A stretch of 62,775 bases of DNA, taken from positions 1 through 62,775 of the forward strand of contig JAPDJY010000025.1 in the NCBI GenBank assembly GCA_029258835.1. The letters are read 5' to 3'. Numbering within the stretch: the stretch's first letter is position 1; each line of letters opens with the position of its first letter. The DNA comes from Thermoproteota archaeon. Lineage in GTDB: Archaea; Asgardarchaeota; Jordiarchaeia; Jordiarchaeales; Freyrarchaeaceae. The position numbers and the translations under genes are program-made. Positions 2,370 through 19,948 of the stretch are shown here, piece after piece. Under the pieces are notes generated by a model. That model made no database searches. It was given only the letters and a program-made list of their open reading frames with translations, and was not told the DNA's origin.

Positions 2370-3197
2370 GTGTTGCCCATTAGCCTTCACGTAAAGGTTG
2401 CCGCATTAGGTTCAGGGGGGATAAAGCGCTTTTCAGGCCATCTGGTTAGGGGAGGGCTGCTAGACTTTTTCAACAGAGTTGATCCAGAGCTTGCCAGCGA
2501 GCTTCATACGCCAAATCAGCCTAGACCTTACAGCGTTTCTCCAGCGCTCCCCGTAGGTAAAGGAAGAATTTACGGCGACCTTTTCCACGTGAGGAAAGGG
2601 GACGTGTTTGAGTTTCATCTGGGCTTTCTTATAGATGAAATTGGAGAGAAAGTGCTTGAACATCTTTCTGACTTTAAGATTAAGCTGGGAGAGGTGGGGT
2701 TTACGCCAGTCGAACTAAAGTTTAAAAGGAAAGAATATGAAGAGTTCATTAAAAGTGCAGAAATACATGATAGGTTTAGGATGGTATTTAAGACACCTAC
2801 ACAACTGTCAGTACGAAGCATGAACTATCCATTCTTATTTCCAGACCCACGCTACATCTACCCTAGCATTGCGAGGTTATGGAACACCTTTGCACCAGAA
2901 TATGTTAGAGTTGACGTCGACGAGCTTCACGGATGGGTGTCTGGCAACGTTTACGTACGTAACTACCGCCTAAACACGGTAGATGTAACAATGGGAAAAG
3001 AAAGAAAAGTTGTAGGCTTCACGGGATATGCCGACTTTTACGAGGAGAGGACGGATGGGTATGCTCCCTGGATTACGATACTCTCAGAATATGCAACGTT
3101 TTCAAACGTTGGAGCGAAAAGAACAGGTGGAATGGGAGTGGTAGAAATTAAACTCCCTAAAAGAAAGGAAGAACAAGTCGACGGCAGATCATCATAA
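2370..3197 (+). CDS. cas6: CRISPR-associated endoribonuclease Cas6 (stand-alone)
   Basis: LH..RPYSVS N-terminal motif, FKTPT, GFTG, C-terminal G-rich loop NVGAKRTGGMG. Confidence 0.9.
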   Translation: MLPISLHVKVAALGSGGIKRFSGHLVRGGLLDFFNRVDPELASELHTPNQPRPYSVSPALPVGKGRIYGDLFHVRKGDVFEFHLGFLIDEIGEKVLEHLSDFKIKLGEVGFTPVELKFKRKEYEEFIKSAEIHDRFRMVFKTPTQLSVRSMNYPFLFPDPRYIYPSIARLWNTFAPEYVRVDVDELHGWVSGNVYVRNYRLNTVDVTMGKERKVVGFTGYADFYEERTDGYAPWITILSEYATFSNVGAKRTGGMGVVEIKLPKRKEEQVDGRSS

Positions 3198-3377: not shown

Positions 3378-4346
3378 TTAGTGGAGGTAGCGTGAAAGTC
3401 TGGCAATTCTTCTAAGTATGTTTGGATGTGTTGAGAAAAGCTCCACTATTCTGCTCGTGAAGCCAAGACTATTGGCCTTTTTCTCGAGTAGGAGAAGCTC
3501 GTAGGCGTCTAGTTTTCCGTCTCCGTTAACGTCTGCTTCAAGAAGAAGCTTCATTTCCTTTGATACTTTTGGCGTTGGGTCTACAGCGAAGAACGCCTTC
3601 ATCGATTTCACTGCTTTAACTTCTTTCTCGCTATTATGGAGGGTGCTCCGTGCTAGTTTGTAGAGAGCGGATGCTAATGGTTCAGGCCTCCCGATGAGAT
3701 CGACGCTTCCAGCGTCAGCGTAGTACTCTCTCACCCTGCTCACGTAGAGAACTATCAAGTTGGTTATGAAGTACATTACTAGGGCTCCAAGACCTATTAC
3801 TAGAGTGACCGCTCCCCCCTCTCTGCTTCTATATCCAGAAAATACCGTGGAAAGGAAAATGTAGTAGCATATTAACGGTATAACACTTAACGCGGTCACT
3901 ATTATCATGTCCCTGTTTTTTATGTGACTTAATTCGTGTCCTATGACAGCTTCCAGCTCATCATCGCTTAAAAGTTTAAGGAGGGGGCGGGTTACACAAA
4001 TACGAGAGTCACGCATAGTTCTTCCGAAGGCGAAAGCGTTCGGTATGTTGACATTTGAAATTCCAACTCGTGGCATTGGTATCCCCGCCTTCGCCGAAGC
4101 TTTAGCCACAATACCGTAAAGACGTGGTTCATCGCTTGAAGTGATATAATTGACGTTCATGACGAAATCGACAATTTTCGGGCCAATAATGTATTGGAAC
4201 AACATTACACCAGCAGCTATTAAGATGTAAAGCAGTGGTACGTTTACTCCAAGCAGATACATAGATACTGCTATGAGAGCATAGAAGAGAGAGAACATCA
4301 GCACTACTGCCAGAAGGACACGGAGCCGTAGACCCCACACTCTCAT
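3378..4346 (-). CDS. htpX: Zinc metalloprotease HtpX (M48)
   Basis: PNAFAFG, HELSH, SRVREYYAD, FSTHP motifs; transmembrane segments. Confidence 0.93.
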   Translation of the reverse strand: MRVWGLRLRVLLAVVLMFSLFYALIAVSMYLLGVNVPLLYILIAAGVMLFQYIIGPKIVDFVMNVNYITSSDEPRLYGIVAKASAKAGIPMPRVGISNVNIPNAFAFGRTMRDSRICVTRPLLKLLSDDELEAVIGHELSHIKNRDMIIVTALSVIPLICYYIFLSTVFSGYRSREGGAVTLVIGLGALVMYFITNLIVLYVSRVREYYADAGSVDLIGRPEPLASALYKLARSTLHNSEKEVKAVKSMKAFFAVDPTPKVSKEMKLLLEADVNGDGKLDAYELLLLEKKANSLGFTSRIVELFSTHPNILRRIARLSRYLH

Positions 4347-4839: not shown

Positions 4840-6390
4840 TTAAGGTAATGGAGTAACGATGTAATCTGGCGGGTATGAGACTGTAAACTTATAGTTTATT
4901 TCCAGCTGACCTCCGGGATTTAGGGTTCGCTCCCACTTAATGACTCCTACTCCAGACTTCTCGTCTGGAGACGGGTTCGAAGAGACCAGTTCAACGGAGA
5001 TTTCAGGGTCCCGAGCGACAGGTATTCTATCGTAGATAACCAGTTTAGCTTCATTTTCCAAGTGGTTCTTGACGGAGAGGAAGTAGCCGTAGGTTACATG
5101 CGCCCTACCTTTAACCACGCCCTTCTTCTCCTCCTCTCTAAGTATCATTTTACGCTCGCACTCAAGCCTTTCCTCCCAAGCTATAGGAAGCTCAAACTCT
5201 TGGTTTGGGGCGACATACGGAATGCTGGTGGTGCCTACCAGCATCCCGTTCTTAAACATCCTGCAAGTTCCAGGGCTAAGCGGAACCTCCCCATTCCTTA
5301 TTTTAACTACTTCGACGAAGTCTGAATGCTGGTAGGCGTCCCATACATAGTAGGTTTCAGCCTCAACATCGAAGCGTTTAAGAAGTATCATTGTTGGCCT
5401 CCCGGGGAAGAAAGAGCCCTTAGAGGATACTTTAAACGCGAGTGCGCCGGCTGACATAAGGTCAGCTTCCTGGAAGGCTGGTTCTAAGGCTTCCTCCATC
5501 TCTTCACCTAACGTCTCCTCAGCCATTTCCTCGGTCATAACCGCCATTTTCGGCGCTCGGGTGGGAGGGATGAAGGATGGTGCACCCGGTTTAATAGCGT
5601 TGATGAACCATGGTGCTGGCTCAGGTTTCGTAGCGGTGCGAATAATCTTGCCTGATACTGTTACGGGAACGTCTTCCCAAGACACTCCTGTAGATTGTAC
5701 TACTTGAGCGTACACGGCTATTTCAGCTTGTCCCTCCAGTAACACGTCATATACGGGAGACCAGCCAACGTTTGACGCTTCATACTGTAGTATGAAGTCA
5801 TACGTGTCTGCCCGCTCACAGATTAGATCGAGTTCGATTGCTCCTAGTTCTACGGCTTTCTTGTCGATTCCTTCAAGAAGTACTTCAATGCGCTTTATCT
5901 CGTCATTTAGAGAGGATAGCTCGCGCTCCCGCTCTATTATTTCAAAAACCTTCTTTTTCCTTATTTCCGAGATTGCTTCTAGAACTTCGTTGAGGTGTTG
6001 CTTTGAGGCTTCCCCTACAAGACCAGCGGTGACAAACGCCTCAGCTGCTTTGCTTAAAGCCTTGTCGAACGATTCAATCAGCTTTTTCGATTCTTCAATT
6101 TCGCTTTCAAGCGTTTTAACTTTCTCCTTCAACTCCCTTAACTCTCTGAGAAGGAGTTCCTTTTCGGATACAGCCTTATCTATCCCCACCACGGTTGTTT
6201 TCAAATCAGCTCCGGTTACCGTCACGCCTTTCCTAGAGAAAATCCTTATCGACCCTGGAATTATTGTTTTTTCAAGCCCTTCAACGAGGATCGTTGATGA
6301 GCCTTCCTTAAGTTCGGCTGAGAATGTGCGTCTTAAGGTGGCAAGATTTCTGAAAATTTTAACTTCTTCTATCTTGGCGAGAACACTCAT
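4840..6390 (-). CDS. DUF4140/DUF4139 (MuiA-like) protein
   Basis: N-terminal IEEVKIF..A...R, coiled coil, GWSPVYD, VQSTGVSWEDV, DRIPV, C-terminal beta domain. Confidence 0.85.
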   Translation of the reverse strand: MSVLAKIEEVKIFRNLATLRRTFSAELKEGSSTILVEGLEKTIIPGSIRIFSRKGVTVTGADLKTTVVGIDKAVSEKELLLRELRELKEKVKTLESEIEESKKLIESFDKALSKAAEAFVTAGLVGEASKQHLNEVLEAISEIRKKKVFEIIERERELSSLNDEIKRIEVLLEGIDKKAVELGAIELDLICERADTYDFILQYEASNVGWSPVYDVLLEGQAEIAVYAQVVQSTGVSWEDVPVTVSGKIIRTATKPEPAPWFINAIKPGAPSFIPPTRAPKMAVMTEEMAEETLGEEMEEALEPAFQEADLMSAGALAFKVSSKGSFFPGRPTMILLKRFDVEAETYYVWDAYQHSDFVEVVKIRNGEVPLSPGTCRMFKNGMLVGTTSIPYVAPNQEFELPIAWEERLECERKMILREEEKKGVVKGRAHVTYGYFLSVKNHLENEAKLVIYDRIPVARDPEISVELVSSNPSPDEKSGVGVIKWERTLNPGGQLEINYKFTVSYPPDYIVTPLP

Positions 6391-6662: not shown

Positions 6663-8132
6663 ATGTTAGAGTTCATGGATAAAGAGAATGGAGCGTATTA
6701 TAAGTTTTACATCGTTGATGGGCATCACCATTTAGGAGCCGACGTAGACGGGCAAAGTAACCGGAACCCCGCTGCCCCCGGAGGAACGTTTGACTTTTGC
6801 TTCAAGATAACCAGCCAGCTCTTAAGAATACTTGCTGATGGGAAAGTAGACTTGAAAGCTGAGCCACATGGCTTCTTAAAAGAGATTCTCGAACAGGAAG
6901 ACAAGTGGAAGGACGTGCTTAACGGAACTTGGGCTGTAGATAAGACGGTTGTCTTCCCGTTTAACGACGAGTTCAGGTGGAGAGAAGGAGACGAGGGGAA
7001 AGCAACTTACTGGAGGTCAAATGATAACATTCACAGATGGACTGCGCGCGCCCCTTACTCCTTTAAGCTCACAGGGTATGCGCGTATAGTTCCGCATGAG
7101 GGGGACGTGGCTGTCAGGGAGCTTCACAGGGCGGTAGAGGAGCTCGGTCTCAGAGGATTAAAGCTCCATCCTAGATCTGACGGATGGGGAGGGGAGATCA
7201 ACACGGATCCTGTAGAAAGAGTTCTTGTTGAAGCTGCTAAGCTAGGTATTCCTGTGATCTTTGATACGAGAGGGTTTAACCAGGTGGTTGACATAGCGGA
7301 GGTAACCGTTAAGGCGAAGCTGAGGCTGGCAAACATCGATAAGAGGCTTGCGAAGAGGCTTAAGGTAATACTCGCCCATGTAGGGTTTCACGTGGGTCAT
7401 GATGAGCTTTTCTCCATCCTAAGTCACCCTAATATTTACGGTGAAACTTCAGGGGTTCACGACGCGGGGATAAGACGGCTTTTTGAGGAGGCCTCTGTAA
7501 GGCTAAGCGAAAACTTAGGACCATACCGTAGATGGTCGGAAAAGTTAATATTTGGGACGGATTTCCCATATTTCGACGTGCCACATGCAGTACAGTTCAT
7601 CTCCTACGTCCTTAGCGAAGATTTCCCTGGAACCTTCGAGGACGCACAGCGTATTCTGGGAGTTAACGTGCTACGCTTAATACCTCCAAAACTGGAGAGG
7701 GCACCCTTTAAACTTGAGGCGGTTCATTTTAGAAGGGAGCTGGCCCCCATGGTTAAAAGGAAAATAGCCTTAGAACTAGCTAATCTAGCATCTAATAAAA
7801 AATGTGATGTAACCTCTTTTGACCCTTTCCTCCAGCCTCCGCCGAGGGCGAACGTTAGAGAAGACTGCGTCATCTCCATTAGGAGCATGAACGGAGACGA
7901 TAAGAAAGCTTCACTCATGTTTTTCACAATACGTGGGATAGGAGTTATAGCACGGTTAGACTCTGAGTTAACCAGCCTAGACACATTATTAAGAAGAGAG
8001 TTAGCGTACGATGATTCACCATTAAGGCAAAGGTTTTACAATAAGCTCTGGCCCAGCAAGGTAGAGCGCGAACAGGCGCAAATTGAAGAGAAAATAAGGA
8101 GCATTTTGAAGCCACTCTTTGAGAAATCCTAA
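6663..8132 (+). CDS. Amidohydrolase (Amidohydro_2 TIM barrel) with an extra C-terminal domain
   Basis: IVDGHHH, GLKLHP, ILAHVG, FGTDFP motifs; ~150 aa unassigned C-terminus. Confidence 0.85.
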   Translation: MLEFMDKENGAYYKFYIVDGHHHLGADVDGQSNRNPAAPGGTFDFCFKITSQLLRILADGKVDLKAEPHGFLKEILEQEDKWKDVLNGTWAVDKTVVFPFNDEFRWREGDEGKATYWRSNDNIHRWTARAPYSFKLTGYARIVPHEGDVAVRELHRAVEELGLRGLKLHPRSDGWGGEINTDPVERVLVEAAKLGIPVIFDTRGFNQVVDIAEVTVKAKLRLANIDKRLAKRLKVILAHVGFHVGHDELFSILSHPNIYGETSGVHDAGIRRLFEEASVRLSENLGPYRRWSEKLIFGTDFPYFDVPHAVQFISYVLSEDFPGTFEDAQRILGVNVLRLIPPKLERAPFKLEAVHFRRELAPMVKRKIALELANLASNKKCDVTSFDPFLQPPPRANVREDCVISIRSMNGDDKKASLMFFTIRGIGVIARLDSELTSLDTLLRRELAYDDSPLRQRFYNKLWPSKVEREQAQIEEKIRSILKPLFEKS

Positions 8133-8271: not shown

Positions 8272-9738
8272 ATGCCGGATAAAGGTGCCGAGGAGCAAAA
8301 GGAGAAGGAGGTTAAGCCCCTGAAGGCTGTTAAGAAAACTGTTAAGAAAAAGAGAGCGGAGGCCGCTGAGGAGAAAGCCGTCGAGGAAAAGAAGGGGGAA
8401 GAGGAGGAAGTCATCGAGAGAATGTTTAAAGAAGCAGAGGAAGCTAAGGAGGAGAAGTCTCCTAAAAAGCAGTTTAAAGTTGTTGTTAAGGAGGGATTAT
8501 CAGGATACATATCTCTTAATGAGAAGGATGCCTCAGAGTTGCAGATTCTTGAAGGGTCAATAGTGGAGTTTGAGGACCCACTCTCGGGGGCGGGGGGTGT
8601 AGCCCTTGCCCACCTAGACAAAGATGTTTCTCCAGGAACCGCTGTCATGGAGCCTGCCCTTAGCGAGGCATGCGGCATCGATGAGGGCTTCGAGGTGAAC
8701 ATTGGCAAGTTTGAGGGAACACCACAGAAGATAACTAAGATAGTCTTTGGGGTGGAGCCGCTAGAGGGGGGAGCCGAGGAGGCTATAAGGAGGGTTCTGG
8801 ACGCTAAAGACGAATTCCAAAATTGGCTTGATGGGAGGGTTATATTCAAAGATTGGGTTTTGAAGTTTCCTAAGCTAAACGTTAACGTTTATGTCGTTTC
8901 TACGGAGCCTCCATTAACTGGAAGGCAGGTTGGAATAATAAACTTCGCTGAGATAAAAAGCTATGAAGTCAAACCTTGGAGGGCGGCTGTTCCATTCAAT
9001 GCAATCCTGTTAATAGACGTGTCAAGAAGCATGCTGACGGAGGACATGAAGGTTACGAACATAGCTCCAGCGATCGAAGCCATAAAAACGATAGGAGGGG
9101 AAATCCCTGAAATTAAGGAGTTCTTGGAGCAGTTCCGAGAGGGGAAAAACGTCAAAAGAGTTGCTGGAGCCGTGTTTGCAGCGCTACTTTACCTGGTGGA
9201 GAAGGTTGGGCGCGGTTACGGAGAGAGAGTGGCAATAATAACTTATAGTGAGACAGCTGAGCCCATAACGTTCCTCATGACAGGAGGGGTGAAGCTTCCA
9301 TACTTCCATCCTGGGAAGAGCAAGATGGCGGGGGTCTCGCAGCTTGGAAGGCTCATAATCGACAGGCTTAACAGGGTTTCCAGCAGCCACACCAATATGT
9401 CTGAGGCGCTCATGGAAGCATTAAAGCTAATAGAAACGTGGGAAAAGGAGGAGCCTGAGGGGAAAAGGCTACCTAACATGATCGTGCTGTTAAGTGACGG
9501 TTTCCCAGACATTTGGGGAGATGAAGGGCCACCCGTCCAAGTTGTTCACGACCACTTCTCAAAGAGAAGTGACGTAGTAATATATACTGTTGGAATTGGA
9601 GGGGAAGTGCAGGAAAGGATAATGGAGGCAATAGCAACTAAAGGACATGGAATTTACTATAAGGCTGAAGACTTGGGAGACCTGCTAAACTGGTATCAAA
9701 AATTAGCAAGGGACCTCGTCATCCGGCTAGAAGCTTAA
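8272..9738 (+). CDS. CDC48 N-domain-like + von Willebrand A domain protein
   Basis: E/K-rich N-tail; double-psi-barrel-like halves (ISLNEKDASELQILEGSIVEF; VMEPALSEACGIDEGFEVNI); CDC48_2-like (LDGRVI...VYVVSTEP); vWA MIDAS DVSRS, HTNM, LLSDG, IYTVGIG. Confidence 0.75.
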   Translation: MPDKGAEEQKEKEVKPLKAVKKTVKKKRAEAAEEKAVEEKKGEEEEVIERMFKEAEEAKEEKSPKKQFKVVVKEGLSGYISLNEKDASELQILEGSIVEFEDPLSGAGGVALAHLDKDVSPGTAVMEPALSEACGIDEGFEVNIGKFEGTPQKITKIVFGVEPLEGGAEEAIRRVLDAKDEFQNWLDGRVIFKDWVLKFPKLNVNVYVVSTEPPLTGRQVGIINFAEIKSYEVKPWRAAVPFNAILLIDVSRSMLTEDMKVTNIAPAIEAIKTIGGEIPEIKEFLEQFREGKNVKRVAGAVFAALLYLVEKVGRGYGERVAIITYSETAEPITFLMTGGVKLPYFHPGKSKMAGVSQLGRLIIDRLNRVSSSHTNMSEALMEALKLIETWEKEEPEGKRLPNMIVLLSDGFPDIWGDEGPPVQVVHDHFSKRSDVVIYTVGIGGEVQERIMEAIATKGHGIYYKAEDLGDLLNWYQKLARDLVIRLEA

Positions 9739-9869: not shown

Positions 9870-12800
9870 TTAGGATGGGGTAAACGTCACGGTTATTAGG
9901 GAGTTTTGAACTAGCTTGTTGGGTATCTCCTTAAGCTGCCCTTTCACTTTTTCAAAGAAGATCATTCCCAGGTAATAGGATTCAGGCTGCTTAGGTTTAT
10001 GTACTTCCCATATGATTGGCTCATACGTTAGCCTCACTATGTTTCCCTTTATGAGCGTTGTTTCAACCGTTTTCCGCAGAATAACTTTTTTAGCTTTCTT
10101 TTCAAACACGGCGAAAACAGCCCTAACAGGTAGATTGTAGTCGGCAAAGCTTTGAACGGAGGGGGAAAGCTTCAACTCTAGTTTATCGCCTTCCATCTGG
10201 ATGTATTCTGACAAGGGCGGAGTGCTGATGTATGCCACTCTTATAAGAGGCTTAACTGCTTCGACAAGAAGCCGCCTTTCAGTAGTCCAGCCGGACGCAC
10301 CATTCCTTTTAATTTCAAGCTTAACCGCGCACTCCTTGTCAACAGCGAATAGAGGTACTTTTATGGGTATTCTTGCGAGAACCTTGTCCTTTGGAGCTAT
10401 TTCTATGGGTATTACACCGTCTAATACTGTAAAGTCGTCCACAGCCTCACGGTATGCGAGTTCAAAGCTGAGGGTGGAATCCGTTAGGTTCTCTATCTGG
10501 ATGATTATGTCGTGGAGAGAGCCGGGGGGAAGGGAAGGAGGAAGCTCGTGAACTATTACGCTTATAGCCTCCCTTAAGTCCAGCACGTTGACTTGAATGG
10601 AGTCCTCAGCTATTTTCTTAGAGTCTTTAATTATTGCAGCTGTTAAAAGAATGGATTTAACACCGCTTGGAACCGGTATTGGAGGAACATCTATTGACGA
10701 CTCAGTCACGGGATCTGACAGTTCCATTGTGGCAACCGTTTCAGACCCGGATGCGGTTATGCTCTCTATTACGAGTGAGCATGGAGTTAGGGAGCTGCTT
10801 AAACCGCTTATCGACAACTTTCCCCTAATCGTAGATCCTGAAAGAGAACTTTTAGGAACCTCAGACCACTTTAAGCTTACTTCTGGGCCTCTAACAACTT
10901 TAAACTTGGCAGGTGCCTCGACAAGGTTAACTAGCTCGCCGTCGTGTAAGACTTCAACCGTGAGGTAAAAGACGCCTTCACCGGCTCCCTTACCTAAGAT
11001 GTCCCTTGGAATAGTCCATTTAACCGGCATTGTCGTTGAAACTCCTGGTTTGACCGAGGCCTCAAAAATCTTTCTTTCAAATGTTTCGTCTGAAGGAGAC
11101 TTGATCTTCACTACCACCTTCACTGGTGAGGGGGATAGGAGGTCGCTTGCATCGACCATTAAAGACGTCTCCAATGTTTCCCCTACGTTATAAGTGGACT
11201 TTGGTTTCTGCCCGACTTCAACGGAGACCATGGCTCCTTGGAAGAACACTCTGAAGTCCCTAGACCAGCTTTCAGATATCACGTGGCCACTTGAATCTAG
11301 AAGCTGGGCTCTTATAGCACACCGTGGACTGATCCAAGAGCTGTAAAGCCAAGGCTTTAACACTAGCGGGTCTATTTCAACCCAGCTTCCTTCGGTTTGC
11401 CCTTCTAGCACGGCTTTAGCCCAGTCAAGCTTCGCTATCTCCTCCGACATGGCGACGAAAAGGGCGTGATCCTTCGCCCTTATAGGTTTAAGGTAGACGC
11501 CCCACGGCTTTAGATCACTCAGCACTGAGTCTAGTTCGCGTCCCTGGTCCTTGTCGACAACGGATATTTTGAGTGTTAAATACATGTCTTGGGGGGTGGT
11601 GTTCTCGACTGCTACTATAAAGGGAATCTCTGTTTCTCCAGTAACGATTACGCCGTCAACTTGGGCTATGAGGTCTGTCTTGCAAACAACCCTATATACA
11701 GGGATTGCGAGCTTTTCCACCGCGACGAGCTCGGAGGACACTGTTAGCTTGGCGCTGAGAGTATACTGAGGTACGCCTGCCTCGGTGTCAAACTCTATTT
11801 CGCCATAACGCCTCTCACCGGGTTCCAGCGTTTCAAGGGTAAAGAGCTCTTCCAATACTTCTTCCCCGGCGTGATCAATGACTACACAGCTAAGGTTGAG
11901 ATCTCTGAGGGGTTCTTCGCCCTTGTTCTCCACGAATATTTTACATGTTACCGATTGTCCCTCGAAAACGATGGATGGTTCAAACGATAATTCGAGGGAA
12001 ACCGGGACGGCTACTAGCTCCTGAAGGTTTGGAATGCCAGAGAGAGGGTCGCTCCAGACATTGCTGCATGTTTGGTCAGCTATTATCTGCAATTCTCTCG
12101 AGAGACTTTCTATGCTTTCCCCAAGCTCGAAGTACTTCTCCAGTTGATAGTCAGCCGTAGTCATGGGCGGGATAATTTTGCCAGACATGTCCCCATAGAC
12201 GCTAACCAACAACGGGTTGAGGAACTCAGACTTTAGAATGCCAAGTTCTTCGAGTTCCTCCTTCAAGAAGAAGAACATGTTTTTTACCGCGTCTACTATG
12301 CGTTTAACAGGTTCTTTCCCTCCCAGCCTGCAATCAAAAAAGTAGAATGCCGCGAAGTTAGGGTGCTTCCTAGCGAACTCGTCAAGATTCCTAGGCTTAA
12401 AGAAGGGGCCTGTTAACCCCCACCTGATCGCTGAACGTCTATTCTTGATGAGCGTTTCAGAGTCTACTTCGGGAATTAATTCCCCACTATCATGAAGCTT
12501 CTTGGCCTTAAGGGCTAATGCTTGGAGCAGTGCTGCGAGAGCCACCTTACGGATCACACTAATTTGAGAGTCAAAAACTCTAATTTCAACCGTGTTAAAG
12601 CGTGTAAAAGGGTACATATCACACATTCTGGCGGGAGTACGGCCAACAACCCTTTCAAAGAAAGATTCGTCCAAGGAGGTAAGATGTGGAATGTAGTGTT
12701 GGGGATCGTCAGGTCCGAGTTGTCGGGCGTTAAGTTGGAGTCGGATGCTTCTAATGCAACCCGGAGCCTGAAGCCTTCCATCCTTCATTGTGACGATGTC

Positions 12801-13427
12801 TGTTGGCCGTCCGGCTACGAAGGGAGAGTTGACGGAGAGAGCTACTAAGTGTGGTATGAATGCTCGGATGAGGTTATAGACGGATAGCCTGTAGCCTGGG
12901 TCAGGGACGCCGATATGGTGGTGGTCGCCGAAGCTTAAACCTTGCTGGTACTCCATCAGGGGGTTTAGCCCGGTCGTTATGAATTTGACTCCTGCAGGCA
13001 GCGAGTCGTGGGAAAGTTTGAGTATAGTGTGCATCCACCAAGCAAGCTCTTCAAGCGTAGTGCAGGGCGGTGTGGCGGCCTCAAGGATCCACGTGATCGT
13101 TCCAATATGGGGGTCGCGTCCAAGAATTTCGATGTCAACTTGTTCGCCGTTAGATAGCGTGTACGTTACTATTAGGGTGTCACCCCTTCTTTCTACGGGT
13201 GCGATCCTTATGTTAGAGGTTTTCTTGCTGATCATTTCCGTGAGCTCATCCTGTGGGTCCCTGAGAATCCCTTTAAGACCTTCCGCTACATCCTGAACTA
13301 TTTTTCCCATAATGCTGACCATTTTCTCTCCATCAATCCAACGGCCTTTCAAGTTTACGATCTGGATTTCAGATTCTATGCCATGCGTGAACGGTAGCTT
13401 GGTTAGCGTACTTGCCAACTTCACCAC
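9870..13427 (-). CDS. Carboxylate-amine ligase (GCS2/YbdK family) fused to multiple Ig-like beta-sandwich domains
   Basis: THGIESEIQIV, ILEAATPPC, GDHHHIGVPD, LVALSVNSPF, TVEIRVFD; C-terminal CARDB-like repeats (VENKGEEP..LEPGE; VENTTPQ; IENLTDS..IAPKD). Confidence 0.8.
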   Translation of the reverse strand: MVKLASTLTKLPFTHGIESEIQIVNLKGRWIDGEKMVSIMGKIVQDVAEGLKGILRDPQDELTEMISKKTSNIRIAPVERRGDTLIVTYTLSNGEQVDIEILGRDPHIGTITWILEAATPPCTTLEELAWWMHTILKLSHDSLPAGVKFITTGLNPLMEYQQGLSFGDHHHIGVPDPGYRLSVYNLIRAFIPHLVALSVNSPFVAGRPTDIVTMKDGRLQAPGCIRSIRLQLNARQLGPDDPQHYIPHLTSLDESFFERVVGRTPARMCDMYPFTRFNTVEIRVFDSQISVIRKVALAALLQALALKAKKLHDSGELIPEVDSETLIKNRRSAIRWGLTGPFFKPRNLDEFARKHPNFAAFYFFDCRLGGKEPVKRIVDAVKNMFFFLKEELEELGILKSEFLNPLLVSVYGDMSGKIIPPMTTADYQLEKYFELGESIESLSRELQIIADQTCSNVWSDPLSGIPNLQELVAVPVSLELSFEPSIVFEGQSVTCKIFVENKGEEPLRDLNLSCVVIDHAGEEVLEELFTLETLEPGERRYGEIEFDTEAGVPQYTLSAKLTVSSELVAVEKLAIPVYRVVCKTDLIAQVDGVIVTGETEIPFIVAVENTTPQDMYLTLKISVVDKDQGRELDSVLSDLKPWGVYLKPIRAKDHALFVAMSEEIAKLDWAKAVLEGQTEGSWVEIDPLVLKPWLYSSWISPRCAIRAQLLDSSGHVISESWSRDFRVFFQGAMVSVEVGQKPKSTYNVGETLETSLMVDASDLLSPSPVKVVVKIKSPSDETFERKIFEASVKPGVSTTMPVKWTIPRDILGKGAGEGVFYLTVEVLHDGELVNLVEAPAKFKVVRGPEVSLKWSEVPKSSLSGSTIRGKLSISGLSSSLTPCSLVIESITASGSETVATMELSDPVTESSIDVPPIPVPSGVKSILLTAAIIKDSKKIAEDSIQVNVLDLREAISVIVHELPPSLPPGSLHDIIIQIENLTDSTLSFELAYREAVDDFTVLDGVIPIEIAPKDKVLARIPIKVPLFAVDKECAVKLEIKRNGASGWTTERRLLVEAVKPLIRVAYISTPPLSEYIQMEGDKLELKLSPSVQSFADYNLPVRAVFAVFEKKAKKVILRKTVETTLIKGNIVRLTYEPIIWEVHKPKQPESYYLGMIFFEKVKGQLKEIPNKLVQNSLITVTFTPS

Positions 13428-14164
13428 CCTGCTATTCTCCTAGCGGCTTCCGTCAGAATTTGGAATATATTCTTCACAGCACCGTTATCAAGAAGGCTCT
13501 CAGATAGGCTTACATCTAGGAGGGATTTTTTACCTTTCTTTGCAAGCATGTGAAGGCAGTATACTACTGGTCCTCCGCCGAATGTTTCGTTATCTAAGGA
13601 TATACTTACGTTCTTGATGGAATCCTTTAGGGACGGGATTATTCCATGCTTATCTAAAGAAAATGAGTCGTTAATTATTAAGAGGTTTTTTTCCGTTGGA
13701 AGATCTTTAAAGCTCCTAAGAACTACGATGATCGCTTCAGAGTTGCTTCTCCCTAAAGGAGTGGTAGAAATTATCTTCACCACTTTTTCTCCTGTTTCGA
13801 TTCTTCCCTCAGCGTCGGGAAGAACCAAATAGTAGAATGGATTTCCGGATTTCCTCGCCTCATCAAATAATTTTTTTATTGTTTTTGAGAGAGGAGAAAG
13901 ATCTTCTGGTTGGGTTGATATGACCATGAGGGGGATGAAGCGTTCACCTTCCTTAGGGGTTGAAAAGCGACCTTTCTCCCTTAAATCCTCGAGGTATCTT
14001 AGCAGTAGCTTATCAAAGGAGGTGGCAATGAGCATGTAAAGGTCACTATACTCTGCAGCAATAGTAACAGCTAACGAGAGGCTTTTTTCAAGGTCACCTA
14101 GTAGAGAGGTGAGGGTGGAGGCAACTGAATCGACATGCTTAATTAATTCAATTACTTTTTCCAT
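13421..14164 (-). CDS. Hypothetical protein, possibly a degenerate N-formylglutamate amidohydrolase-like fold
   Basis: NETFGGG and LLDVSLSESL resemble the FGase NxPFxGG and xQxExxxxL segments; overlaps the ligase start. Confidence 0.45.
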   Translation of the reverse strand: MEKVIELIKHVDSVASTLTSLLGDLEKSLSLAVTIAAEYSDLYMLIATSFDKLLLRYLEDLREKGRFSTPKEGERFIPLMVISTQPEDLSPLSKTIKKLFDEARKSGNPFYYLVLPDAEGRIETGEKVVKIISTTPLGRSNSEAIIVVLRSFKDLPTEKNLLIINDSFSLDKHGIIPSLKDSIKNVSISLDNETFGGGPVVYCLHMLAKKGKKSLLDVSLSESLLDNGAVKNIFQILTEAARRIAGW

Positions 14165-14173
14165 GCTCTCCTC

Positions 14174-15343
14174 CTACTTTGACAAGTCTTCAATCGACCT
14201 TAAGAGCTCGCTTCGTTGCCGTCTTAACTCATGCAACTTCTCGGAGAACTCACCCATAAGTTCCCTTACCCTGCTTATGGACTCGTCTATCATCTTTACT
14301 TTTTCGTTTAAGTTACTCATCATCTCACCTAAACCTGTCAGGGATGATACAGACGACAACTTTGCCTCTAAAGAACTAACCCTATCCTCCAAAAGGCTAA
14401 ATTTATGCTTAAGATCTTCAAGTATCACTTTCAACTCTGAAACATCCTGCGGAGGGTAGAATTGCTGATGGGCTTCTGCCTTCTCGGAGCTGGCTTCAGC
14501 GGTCATTTCAGCCTTTAACGCAGCTTCTTTTGTGAAACCCAGCTGGGCTTCTACAATCCCCGTCACTTCGGGCTTTACGAGGCCGCTCGTATAACAGTCA
14601 TAAACCTCCGCTAAGGTCTCCGATATTTCCCTAGCATAAGATTCTCCCCCGAACCCGGAGAAAACACACGAGATCTTATCATGATACCGCATCCCCCATA
14701 CCCCTCTGCTCCCCTTCTGGTCTAAGAAGAGCATTAGGGATGAGGCAAAGGAAGGGCTCTCGAAAAGATTCTGCAAGGTTCTAATTATAAGGTTTAAATC
14801 TTTTGGCAGCACTCCTCCCTCTTCAAAGTCGTTACGCACCCAGATGTACTCAAGATTATTCTCTCCAAAAAGCCTTCGCAACCATTTTTCTAAGCCATCG
14901 ATGAAAATGCGCGTCCCGCTAAACTCGTAGGTTCTCTCGCCGAAGTTTAATATGGAAAGCAGGTTTGCCACGATCATTTTTGACTCTTTCTCGCGGGTCT
15001 TGAAGACACATACCCACTTCTCTTTTCCGTAGCCAACACCACAAACTCTACTCTCCCCAGACTCTAACACCGTTATCGCTATCATGTTGTTTCGTAAAAG
15101 GGGGTTAAGGATGACCTCATTGGAAAAAACTTCGAGGAGAAGCTGAGAGGTTCTAACAGTTTCAGGGTTGAGGACTACGCCTTTAACGTGTTTAAAAAGG
15201 GATTTTGCAACTTTGCCACTTTTAAGAGTTTTAACGGCTTCGCCGATGACGTTTAAGTCTACGAAGAAGTATCCGCTGATCACACCGGCAGTAAAACCAT
15301 ACCATTTATCAAGCCACTGCCTGAGAACTTCACCATACTTCAA
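14174..15343 (-). CDS. Hypothetical protein with C-terminal coiled coil
   Basis: Long ORF; TTG at 15343 follows GGGAGGG; heptads in the last ~90 aa. Confidence 0.7.
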   Translation of the reverse strand: MKYGEVLRQWLDKWYGFTAGVISGYFFVDLNVIGEAVKTLKSGKVAKSLFKHVKGVVLNPETVRTSQLLLEVFSNEVILNPLLRNNMIAITVLESGESRVCGVGYGKEKWVCVFKTREKESKMIVANLLSILNFGERTYEFSGTRIFIDGLEKWLRRLFGENNLEYIWVRNDFEEGGVLPKDLNLIIRTLQNLFESPSFASSLMLFLDQKGSRGVWGMRYHDKISCVFSGFGGESYAREISETLAEVYDCYTSGLVKPEVTGIVEAQLGFTKEAALKAEMTAEASSEKAEAHQQFYPPQDVSELKVILEDLKHKFSLLEDRVSSLEAKLSSVSSLTGLGEMMSNLNEKVKMIDESISRVRELMGEFSEKLHELRRQRSELLRSIEDLSK

Positions 15344-15587
15344 CCGATTCCCTCCCCTGAAAGCCAGCATTCACTAAATGTAGAATTTTAAGTTCAAATC
15401 AAATATAAGACTTGAAAGAAAGTTTTAATAATCATTTCCATAGTCTCGTTTCATTTTTTCGTTCCTTTTTTAACGTCCTGCAGGTAGGTTTGCAAGAGAG
15501 AGCTAAGAGAGGAAAAAGGGGAAGTGTGTTGTTCAATGACACCATTAATGAGTGGCCTTAATTTTTGTTAGAACTTACTTCTCAAGT

Positions 15588-18724: not shown

Positions 18725-19948
18725 ATGCTAATGGCAGACTTGTTTTTAAAATATGTTAAGACGGAAAAATGTGTCAATTGCGGGTTCTGCGGGAGCGTTG
18801 TCCGGTGTCCAGGGTCGGGTTATTGCATAGGCTGTGGCTCATGCTACGTTGCGTGTCCGTACATGGCGCGGGAACCCGTAGAGGACCACGAGCCAAGGAG
18901 GAAAATCAAGATAATCGTTGATGGTACTGTATATGAGGTAGCTGAGAAAACGACGGTTATGAGGGCTCTGGAGTCCTTAGGATACAGGTTTACTAGGTTT
19001 CCAGAGGAAAACGCTATTTTTTCTCCGTGCCTGACCGGGGGATGTTACAGTTGCTCTGTGATTGTTAATGGAGAGGCGAAGCCCGCATGCCACACTGAGG
19101 TTAAGGATGGAGACGTAATAAGTACCAACGTGGAAGGTGTAGAGCCGCTTAGGATAGTTGAAGGATTTAGCCCCCATCAAGTTGGAGGCGTTGGAACACC
19201 GTATTGGGTTAAAGGGAAAGCAGGGTATATTGAAGTGGCCGCATTTGCCGCAGGCTGTAATCTGCGTTGTCCGACTTGCCAGAACTACTTTGTCACTTAC
19301 AATAGTGCCCTTCCTGCCATGACCCCTAATGAGGCTGCTTGGAAGCTGAGCCTTATGAGGAAGAGATACGGAGTGGATAGGATGGCGATAAGCGGAGGAG
19401 AAGCAACGCTTAACCATGACTGGATCGTTAAGTTCTTCAAGAAGTTGAGGAGGCTTAACCCCGATGAAAATGCACGGTTCCACCTTGACACTAATGCGAC
19501 AGTCCTAACTAGGGAAAGAATTGATGATTTAATTATGGCGGGGGTAACCGATATTGGGCCAGACCTTAAGGCTTTTCGCTTGGAAACGTTTCAGCTTATA
19601 ACGGGAGTAGAGGATAAAGAGCTGGCTTTAAAATACCTTAAAACTTCATGGGATGCTGTGAAGTACATTGCGGACAATTACTACCCAGAGATGGTTTTCA
19701 TGGGTATAGGGATACCATACAATAAGTTCTTCTACCCGACGCTTGAAGAGCTACTTAAAATGGGGGAGAAAATAGCGTCTATAGACCCGGACGTTCAGGT
19801 CTGCGTTCTCGACTATAGGCCGGAGTTCAGGAGAAGAGAGATTGTTCAGCCGACCCCGAAGGAGATGCTTAGGGTTAAGGAGGCGCTTAACGGGGTCGGG
19901 TTGAGGAAGGTCATCGTGCAGACTATCACAGGTCATTTTGGGCCGTAG
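18725..19948 (+). CDS. Radical SAM protein (PFL-activase-like) with N-terminal 4Fe-4S and 2Fe-2S ferredoxin domains
   Basis: CVNCGFC / CIGCGSC...CP; CLTGGCYSC...AC; GCNLRCPTC; ISGGE; LDTN. Confidence 0.88.
   Translation: MLMADLFLKYVKTEKCVNCGFCGSVVRCPGSGYCIGCGSCYVACPYMAREPVEDHEPRRKIKIIVDGTVYEVAEKTTVMRALESLGYRFTRFPEENAIFSPCLTGGCYSCSVIVNGEAKPACHTEVKDGDVISTNVEGVEPLRIVEGFSPHQVGGVGTPYWVKGKAGYIEVAAFAAGCNLRCPTCQNYFVTYNSALPAMTPNEAAWKLSLMRKRYGVDRMAISGGEATLNHDWIVKFFKKLRRLNPDENARFHLDTNATVLTRERIDDLIMAGVTDIGPDLKAFRLETFQLITGVEDKELALKYLKTSWDAVKYIADNYYPEMVFMGIGIPYNKFFYPTLEELLKMGEKIASIDPDVQVCVLDYRPEFRRREIVQPTPKEMLRVKEALNGVGLRKVIVQTITGHFGP

Follow-up and report, generated by a model that had tools for sequence, protein, structure and literature searches.

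What does an enzyme act on when a carboxylate-amine ligase domain at its N-terminus is followed by a long row of immunoglobulin-like (Ig-like) modules? The question is raised by a gene on contig JAPDJY010000025.1 (assembly GCA_029258835.1) of an Asgard archaeon from the Jordarchaeia. A stretch of 62,775 nucleotides was analysed; this whole stretch is called the window here, and positions refer to it unless another source is named. Judged by its relatives, the ligase forms a clade of its own, mostly Asgard and distinct from canonical YbdK and GshA enzymes. Comparison of loci further indicates that it stands at the centre of a conserved set of genes, with the protein p247, an Amidohydro_2 hydrolase, and a Cdc48N-vWA protein, and that the set is duplicated in this genome.

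The gene and its ligase clade

The gene, whose product is called P0001, is located as follows.

9870..13427, minus strand: whole ligase gene, P0001, 1185 residues; GCS2-type ligase plus six predicted Ig-like modules; stop codon at 9870-9872

The interval 9870-13427 is one uninterrupted frame with a GTG start. The upstream gene p247 ends with a TGA inside the same short string, GTGGTGA, that provides this start, and GGAG lies about 10 nt ahead. Because start and stop share one string and GGAG precedes it, the two genes look translationally coupled.

The gene is real and conserved. A word-indexed search with P0001 found 159 proteins at E ≤0.001. Among the best 120 of these 159, full-length orthologues have 1126-1190 residues, with identities of 51-72% in Jordarchaeia and Freyarchaeota and of about 30% in Thorarchaeota and their relatives. 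The closest database copies bear the names of the Asgard groups Jordarchaeia and Freyarchaeota. An unbroken ligase followed by an arm recurs in dozens of independent assemblies, closed chromosomes included. A few long ligases from Thorarchaeota (G368:C1:1477734-1481156, G333:C3:772610-775817, and G358:C41:2429-6009) are each interrupted by one stop codon (TAA or TGA), which may reflect gene breakage, gene splitting, or an error in sequencing.

Evidence for a separate clade is provided by family models, by database searches, and by phylogeny. In P0001, all eight matched NCBIfam models of the YbdK/GshA type fall below their curated cut-offs. The YbdK models TIGR02050, NF010039, and NF010040 reach 86, 77.7, and 65.2 bits against cut-offs of 176.4, 371, and 425. 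For the GshA models (NF010041-45 and TIGR02048), the best score is 58.8 bits against 409, and TIGR02048 reaches 12.3 against 249. An exhaustive profile search over 1.84 billion representatives gave 644 matches at E ≤0.001, 108 of them at ≤1e-30. When residues 1-470 were compared with shorter proteins, near-complete clade members were matched at E ≤1e-59 with 34-49% identity, and ordinary carboxylate-amine ligases at about 1e-13.

The quickly built maximum-likelihood tree contains 88 rows, namely 75 of 222 complete ligase domains, retained after a 62% identity filter, and 13 canonical rows; P0002, identical to P0001, was dropped. In this tree, 63 rows form one clade with a Shimodaira-Hasegawa-like approximate likelihood ratio test (SH-aLRT) support of 100, apart from an outgroup of GCS2 proteins of 349-440 residues that is non-monophyletic and not sorted into YbdK, GshA, and EgtA. 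A subclade of 36 rows (support 96) contains P0001, Thorarchaeota proteins, short forms from Heimdall and Loki lineages, Thermoplasmatota forms, and giant proteins, and the branching of P0001 within it is not settled by the tree. Another subclade, of 21 rows (support 100), includes a paralogue from the same genome as P0001. An earlier sequence-only reading of this DNA had suggested a phylogeny of the catalytic domain against the known families. Of that comparison, the tree covers the separation from canonical GCS2 proteins.

Is the ligase still an enzyme? The domain and its motifs are placed as follows.

12015..13427, minus strand: ligase domain, residues 1-471; Pfam GCS2, with PDB profile matches 1r8g and 1tt4
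13368..13382, minus strand: GhExE motif, G16-I-E18-S-E20, the strand-1 Mg/ATP site (motif as defined in PMC2588565)
12915..12923, minus strand: H169-H-H171, the [HD]x[NH] strand-4 motif, aligned to the FGQHVHV segment of YbdK
12570..12587, minus strand: E281-I-R283-V-F-D286, the Ex[RK]x2D strand-6 motif, aligned to TVEVRVMD of YbdK

Pfam GCS2 (PF04107) scores 30.9 bits in P0001 against a cut-off of 21, and it is matched by 42/42 family members. A profile of 48 family members finds E. coli YbdK (1r8g, 372 residues) at E 8.8e-11 and the Salmonella protein 1tt4 at E 2.8e-10, in three blocks. By sequence, then, the domain belongs to the YbdK/GCS2 fold family, and the GhExE motif, the acidic residue, HxH, N-S-P, the invariant arginine, and ExRxxD all align. 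Unlike YbdK, the domain has about 100 extra residues, owing to insertions, and P0001 has an arm, a set of partner genes, and a place in a separate clade.

A study by Iyer, Burroughs, and Aravind sets out the motifs by which the carboxylate-amine ligase superfamily is defined (PMC2588565). P0001 carries all of these: GhExE, the acidic strand residue, [HD]x[NH], and Ex[RK]x2D. Their conservation was counted in an 88-row alignment of 67 clade members and 21 canonical GCS2 proteins. In GhExE, E18 is present in 63/67 and E20 in 66/67 clade members, and both in 21/21 canonical proteins. H169 and H171 of the HxH motif are found in 64/67 and 66/67 of the clade; E281, R283, and D286 of ExRxxD in 66/67, 66/67, and 67/67. 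The acidic residue E116 is kept by 66/67 clade members and 21/21 canonical proteins, and D105 by 63/67 clade members, with their assignment to strands 2/3 inferred. S201-P202, R229, D270, and T279 are retained in 63-67 of the 67, and N200 in 56/67. The superfamily also conserves arginines on strand 5 and in the loop before it; among the arginines of P0001, R229 is invariant (67/67 and, in the canonical proteins, 21/21), and R267 is found in 58/67. Among the canonical proteins, the catalytic motif columns are retained in 20-21/21.

One position differs. At position 272, which corresponds to the Arg of D-I-R-P in YbdK, 56/67 clade members have an aromatic residue (Tyr in 29, Phe in 27). The 21 canonical proteins are variable there too, with Thr in nine and Arg in eight. 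Because the motif columns are kept and position 272 is mostly Tyr or Phe, P0001 is very probably an active ligase with a pocket unlike that of YbdK.

These results agree with what the sequence-only reading had said of the N-terminus. The motifs it named, ExE (E18-S-E20), E.AT (E116-A-A-T), HxH (H169-H-H171), and EIR (E281-I-R283), are each found once, and its intact YbdK/GCS2-type catalytic domain is confirmed by the Pfam score, the two PDB matches, and the conserved motifs. The contrast it drew with single-domain YbdK also holds, at 1185 residues versus 349-440 in canonical proteins.

The same is true of its proposal of a cytoplasmic protein that lacks a signal peptide and a transmembrane segment. 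In P0001 the 19-residue Kyte-Doolittle mean peaks at 1.54, on a conserved ligase-domain helix, which indicates no transmembrane segment. GhExE begins at residue 2-21 in 46/48 members, the other two being N-truncated; therefore there is no room for a signal peptide. On these measures P0001 is cytoplasmic.

The C-terminal arm and its distribution

The arm comprises residues 472-1185, about 715 residues or 79 kDa. When the arm profile (471-1185) is compared with itself, it aligns over 503 columns at a shift of one module (probability 97.8%, E 6.9e-13); shifts of two modules (92.6%, E 4.5e-7) and, less strongly, of three also give alignments. These off-diagonal alignments therefore divide the arm into six modules of 107-150 residues each.

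11673..12014, minus strand: module R1, residues 472-585; sub-threshold Transglut_C, CARDB, and ASH matches; beta periodicity in 58% of sequence windows
11223..11672, minus strand: module R2, residues 586-735, the longest; the Mannosidase_ig cut-off is passed here by the orthologue P0091
10884..11222, minus strand: module R3, residues 736-848; sub-threshold MG2 match at 742-803; hhalign R3-R4 92%, R3-R5 85%
10563..10883, minus strand: module R4, residues 849-955; hhalign R3-R4 92%, R4-R5 81%
10203..10562, minus strand: module R5, residues 956-1075; sub-threshold LacZ_4 match at 982-1048; beta periodicity in 69% of sequence windows
9873..10202, minus strand: module R6, residues 1076-1185; the sole basic module (isoelectric point 9.6) and the least clearly Ig-like

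In pairwise hhalign comparisons, R3, R4, and R5 are clearly similar (81-92%), R1 scores lower (12-49%), and R2 and R6 are lowest, with R6 reaching a probability of 13-22% to the other modules. R1 has three invariant residues, G490, N501, and Y555. R2 is the best-conserved arm module in Jordarchaeia, with 89% identity to close and 61% to far members. A hydrophobic periodicity of the beta type is seen in 57-69% of sequence windows in R1-R5, in 44% in R6, and in 35% in the ligase domain. R6 excepted, the arm is acidic (isoelectric point 5.0 overall). Its modules are 13-22% identical to those of Thorarchaeota orthologues, versus a mean of 43% for the ligase domain, so the arm evolves much faster.

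The Ig-like signals are consistent but modest. Among 42 family members, weak matches are found to MG2 in 13, LacZ_4 in eight, CARDB in six, Transglut_C in four, and Mannosidase_ig in three. Only two orthologues pass a Pfam cut-off, P0005 with LacZ_4 (28.3 versus 27.3 bits, on R5) and P0091 with Mannosidase_ig (26.0 versus 23.4, on R2). Similar Ig-like (E-set) domains are known as accessory domains in enzymes of the cytoplasm, such as the C-terminal domains of transglutaminases, domain 4 of beta-galactosidase, the Ig-like domain of mannosidase, and MG domains. The Transglut_C, LacZ_4, Mannosidase_ig, and MG families presumably belong to one Pfam clan. Unlike these accessory domains, the modules of P0001 stand six in a row behind a ligase.

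The sequence-only reading had proposed an arm of about 700 residues made of tandem Ig-like domains. Its length, its modular build, and its beta-sandwich-like signatures are supported; the fold itself is a prediction from sequence profiles. The motifs said to recur in the arm do not: a single V.N.G and two L.PG were counted (shuffle p about 0.07 and 0.02, respectively). Nor did specific kinship with the sandwiches of TRAPP, adaptin, or arrestin emerge. Arrestin chains are matched in the PDB at E 0.34-0.47, a COP-gamma platform in 1/42 members at E 0.041, and ASH at E 0.17, and the recurrent weak matches are to the generic Ig-like families MG2, LacZ_4, CARDB, and Transglut_C. A role of the arm in recognizing a macromolecular substrate or in scaffolding, also suggested in that reading, is plausible given the Cdc48N-vWA and coupled partners. 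That reading did not include the Asgard-wide spread of the clade with its varying architecture, the four-gene set, or the second cassette.

The ligase is much more widespread than the arm. In a sample of 400 Asgard genomes, 254 match the ligase at E ≤1e-20, including 62 of 90 high-quality genomes. Whole-arm matches in this sample are confined to five family codes, which are Jordarchaeia-type and Thorarchaeota-type genomes. Because of this restriction, the six-module arm is best described, from its distribution, as a lineage-specific elaboration of an older set of ligase, hydrolase, and vWA protein. Of the 222 complete ligase domains, 113 have a tail of about 700 residues and no N-terminal extension, 22 have neither, and the rest have N-terminal extensions of 50-600 residues or tails of 100-1000; these counts are rough, as many of the proteins are fragments.

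Nine giants of 2200-3900 residues have more than 1200 residues ahead of the ligase. In P0138, P0139, P0146, P0148, P0149, P0162, and P0180, the ligase is C-terminal and mostly followed by about 250 residues that align with the beginning of the arm profile. For P0138 and P0139, Pfam finds GCS2 only, and nothing in the 1500-2800 residues before it. A different form is seen at three loci of Thermoplasmatota and Aenigmatarchaeota (L078 2350-4503, L079 2404-4599, and L080 2698-4929), where ligases of 717-743 residues share, at their N-terminus, about 270 additional conserved residues. This extension is unrelated to p247, and in L079 it contains a hydrophobic stretch and a poly-proline run.

The gene set around the ligase

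In the window, p398, p247, and the ligase on the minus strand converge on the genes for the Cdc48N-vWA protein and the hydrolase on the plus strand.

13421..14164, minus strand: p247, 247 residues, directly upstream of the ligase and apparently coupled to it via GTGGTGA
6663..8132, plus strand: Amidohydro_2 metal hydrolase, 489 residues; Pfam E 3.9e-15, metal ligands retained
8272..9738, plus strand: Cdc48N-vWA protein, 488 residues; Pfam VWA, with the DxSxS (D-V-S-R-S) of a metal ion-dependent adhesion site (MIDAS); convergent with the ligase
14174..15370, minus strand: p398, coiled-coil-rich, head of the operon; only weak coiled-coil-type matches
G000:C2:106752-114992 (L081 5752-13992): second, paralogous cassette; Amidohydro_2 of 476 residues, Cdc48N-vWA of 441, ligase of 1228

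The set was followed by tblastn through 80 public loci, many of which end early at contig ends. Cdc48N-vWA was found in 45 of them, Amidohydro_2 in 26, p247 in eight, and p398 in seven. Loci from Jordarchaeia retain the layout of the window. In Thermoplasmatota and Aenigmatarchaeota (L078-L080), the hydrolase, a short ligase, and the vWA protein lie side by side. Fifteen further Asgard loci of other families have Amidohydro_2 adjoining or near the ligase in 13 cases and Cdc48N-vWA inside a 20-kb stretch in nine; in L089, the reading frames of hydrolase and ligase share a 4-nt overlap. All seven p398 loci are from Jordarchaeia, so the membership of p398 in the conserved set is uncertain.

The second cassette lies on another contig of the same genome and consists of an Amidohydro_2 hydrolase, a Cdc48N-vWA protein, the ligase, and an upstream protein of 506 residues (p506). 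Its ligase domain is 41% identical to that of P0001, and its tail is divergent and weakly alike; p506 is coiled-coil-rich and unrelated to p247. Two ligase matches are also found in 10/10 sampled relatives from Jordarchaeia.

The partners can be described to different degrees. The metal ligands of the hydrolase are well conserved (H21 and H23 in 22/25 each, H169 in 23/25, H239 and D300 in 24/25 each), and the closest proteins of solved structure are decarboxylases of small molecules (LigW, E 1.4e-4). The vWA protein of the window is 34% identical over 431 residues to its paralogue, which passes the Pfam cut-off for CDC48_N (38 versus 35.1 bits). A fusion of Amidohydro_2 and Cdc48N-vWA, hinted at by single-linkage clustering, was not confirmed: the long proteins contain only vWA, and the pair in the window is unrelated.

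Searched alone or as a profile of 29 members, p247 found no counterpart in Pfam, NCBIfam, or the PDB; its best PDB hits are designed helical proteins at E 0.011, and Pfam DRTGG appears in 3/29 members at 9.5e-4. It was also considered as formylglutamate-amidohydrolase-like or dead-peptidase-like, and the sequence tests gave no such match. Relatives do exist in other lineages. In Thorarchaeota, an open reading frame (ORF) of 214-242 residues that abuts the ligase is homologous to p247 (hhalign 98.0%, E 1.6e-13, 159 columns). Upstream of short-form ligases at eight loci (L082-L088 and L091), a protein of 361-649 residues has a p247-like C-terminal part (hhalign 88.7%, E 2.6e-6). The first 430 or so residues of this protein are without any match, and its identification as a detached Ig arm failed at 10% probability against the arm profile. 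The N-terminal extensions (80-330 residues) of short-form ligases from Loki-type archaea, Thermoplasmatota, and Aenigmatarchaeota were compared with p247, Thor-223, Thor-145, and p398 as possible fusions, and were dismissed at probabilities of ≤0.4%. Kinship of p398 or p506 with the Thorarchaeota ORF of 145 residues or with p247 was likewise not supported.

Other neighbours are read as lineage synteny or as bystanders. In Thorarchaeota, Opp-type ABC ATPases stand upstream of the ligase, and genes for DUF92, Band_7/NfeD, an Rce1-like CAAX protease, and a HEAT-repeat protein lie in fixed order between the ligase and the vWA gene (L018 13782-19522 and equivalent loci); both groups were tried as set members and are taken as lineage synteny. 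In the window, an M48 peptidase (3378-4346, minus strand) and a DUF4139/DUF4140 protein (4840-6390, minus strand) recur by the set only in the closest relative, L002, and are probably just neighbours. Further out are a Cas6-family endoribonuclease gene (2370-3197, plus strand; Pfam CRISPR_Cas6 E 2.5e-13) and a gene for a radical-SAM protein (18725-19948, plus strand) with an N-terminal 4Fe-4S ferredoxin-like and a 2Fe-2S domain, preceded by an ABC ATPase and a 595-residue protein without a family. The PADLOC defence models match neither the ligase nor p247, the vWA protein, or the hydrolase, and p398 only weakly, in coiled-coil type. The neighbourhoods inspected showed no link to a proteasome.

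What the ligase may act on

The reading favoured here, tentatively and at somewhat less than even odds, is that a cytoplasmic, ATP-dependent carboxylate-amine ligase system has P0001 as its catalytic subunit, uses the arm for docking, and probably has a protein or peptide as its target. In such a system, the ligase would activate a carboxylate as an acyl-phosphate and join it to an amine. The Ig arm would be non-catalytic, a rigid docking arm that holds partners or substrate. With the ligase as writer and most likely a protein or peptide as target, the Amidohydro_2 hydrolase may remove or process the amide bond, and the vWA metal site may read an acidic group. A protein or peptide is favoured because of the Cdc48N-vWA partner, the non-enzymatic coupled subunit, and the giant fusions.

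Several observations weigh against this reading. The protein substrate is argued from gene context, the Ig fold of the arm is predicted from sequence profiles, and any complex is putative. No Ig-like Pfam family reaches its cut-off in P0001 (17.8 versus 26.6, 16.3 versus 32.8, and 15.4 versus 27.3 bits), and R1, R2, and R6 are weakly related to the remaining modules in pairwise comparison. Many clade members have no arm, and therefore the core reaction can proceed without it. The vWA and hydrolase genes of Thorarchaeota stand 6-8 kb downstream of the ligase, with unrelated genes between. Finally, no gene for a small tag ending in a conserved residue turned up; p247 was considered as a Pup-like tag and rejected, since its last residues are not conserved among p247 and its relatives of 214-263 residues.

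The main competitor is a small-molecule pathway, a serious one if less likely than the favoured reading. Here the ligase would gamma-glutamylate or acylate a free amine or metabolite, the hydrolase would make or hydrolyse an intermediate, as in PuuA-, GlnA3-, or FluG-type systems, and the Ig arm and vWA protein would merely build an oligomer or metabolon. To our knowledge, every biochemically characterised enzyme of the GCS2 family (YbdK, GshA, EgtA) acts on small molecules, which counts for such a pathway. So do the tightness of the link to the hydrolase (13/15 loci, with ORFs that sometimes overlap), the decarboxylases among its relatives, and the absence of the arm from many clade members. 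Pairs of ligase and amidohydrolase are, moreover, typical of small-molecule gamma-glutamylation: FluG and its bacterial homologues join an amidohydrolase to a gamma-glutamyl ligase of the glutamine synthetase (GS) fold (PMC6478659). Unlike the set around P0001, FluG has a GSI-type ligase, keeps its two halves in one chain, and is without an Ig arm, a vWA protein, or a p247-like partner. Its N-terminal half we take to be Pfam Amidohydro_2. A metabolic role also sits poorly with the conserved linkage to a Cdc48N-vWA protein with its MIDAS and to a coupled non-enzymatic partner, with giant fusions of 2200-3800 residues, and with an arm of about 79 kDa, which is unusual on a metabolic enzyme. No additional conserved metabolic genes lie in the neighbourhood of the ligase.

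Three further explanations are much weaker. That P0001 is an ordinary gamma-glutamylcysteine ligase, a YbdK or GshA orthologue for thiol synthesis with a decorative tail, is very improbable. In its favour, the Pfam GCS2 score exceeds the cut-off, "glutamate-cysteine ligase family protein" is the name given to family members in public annotation, and a review counts GshA InterPro matches in Asgard archaea (PMC7278568). Against this stand the eight NCBIfam models far under their cut-offs, the separate clade with its aromatic residue at the YbdK arginine position, and a neighbourhood unlike thiol metabolism. PF02955 (glutathione synthetase) matches this genome, but it also matches control organisms without glutathione. 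Ig- and CARDB-type arrays are typical of archaeal cell-surface proteins, and the weak CARDB, DUF11, Transglut_C, and MG2 matches are to families often found in such proteins. That P0001 is secreted or surface-bound, with an arm pointing outward, is still more improbable, since it has neither a signal peptide nor a transmembrane segment, an ATP-dependent enzyme requires the cytoplasm, and the partners show no secretion signatures. The chance that annotation or assembly fused two genes through a sequencing error is negligible, with the same architecture in dozens of independent assemblies and an internal stop in few copies; nothing was found in its favour.

Within the favoured reading of a ligase that acts on a protein or peptide, a more specific proposal can be made, although it is unlikely as it stands: a ubiquitin-independent protein modification in Asgard archaea. 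The ligase, arm, and p247 would be the writer, the Amidohydro_2 hydrolase the eraser, and the Cdc48N-vWA protein the reader, its MIDAS binding the acidic group just added. The logic would resemble pupylation or protein glutamylation, with different parts. PafA and Dop, which belong to the same superfamily, are a functional analogy, as the superfamily study describes a GS-fold ligase that writes an isopeptide bond on proteins and a paired remover of that bond (PMC2588565). Unlike that pair, in which Dop is a paralogue of PafA, the candidate eraser here has an Amidohydro_2 fold. No Pup-ligase family is among the Pfam and NCBIfam matches of P0001 at E up to 1.

No paper on the ligase clade, the arm, or the gene set was found in a search of full-text literature, subscription journals and supplementary files lying outside it. 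The superfamily is well known; the clade, its six-module arm, and its fixed partners are new with respect to the literature found. Asgard archaea are the closest archaeal relatives of eukaryotes. Because about two thirds of the sampled Asgard genomes have the set, and this genome has it in two copies, a central role in the lineage ancestral to eukaryotes is likely. If the target is a protein, the set would represent a novel type of post-translational tagging beside the ubiquitin system of the same genomes. If it is a metabolite, it would be an Asgard pathway not previously known. Under either reading, four proteins are now defined for expression and assay.

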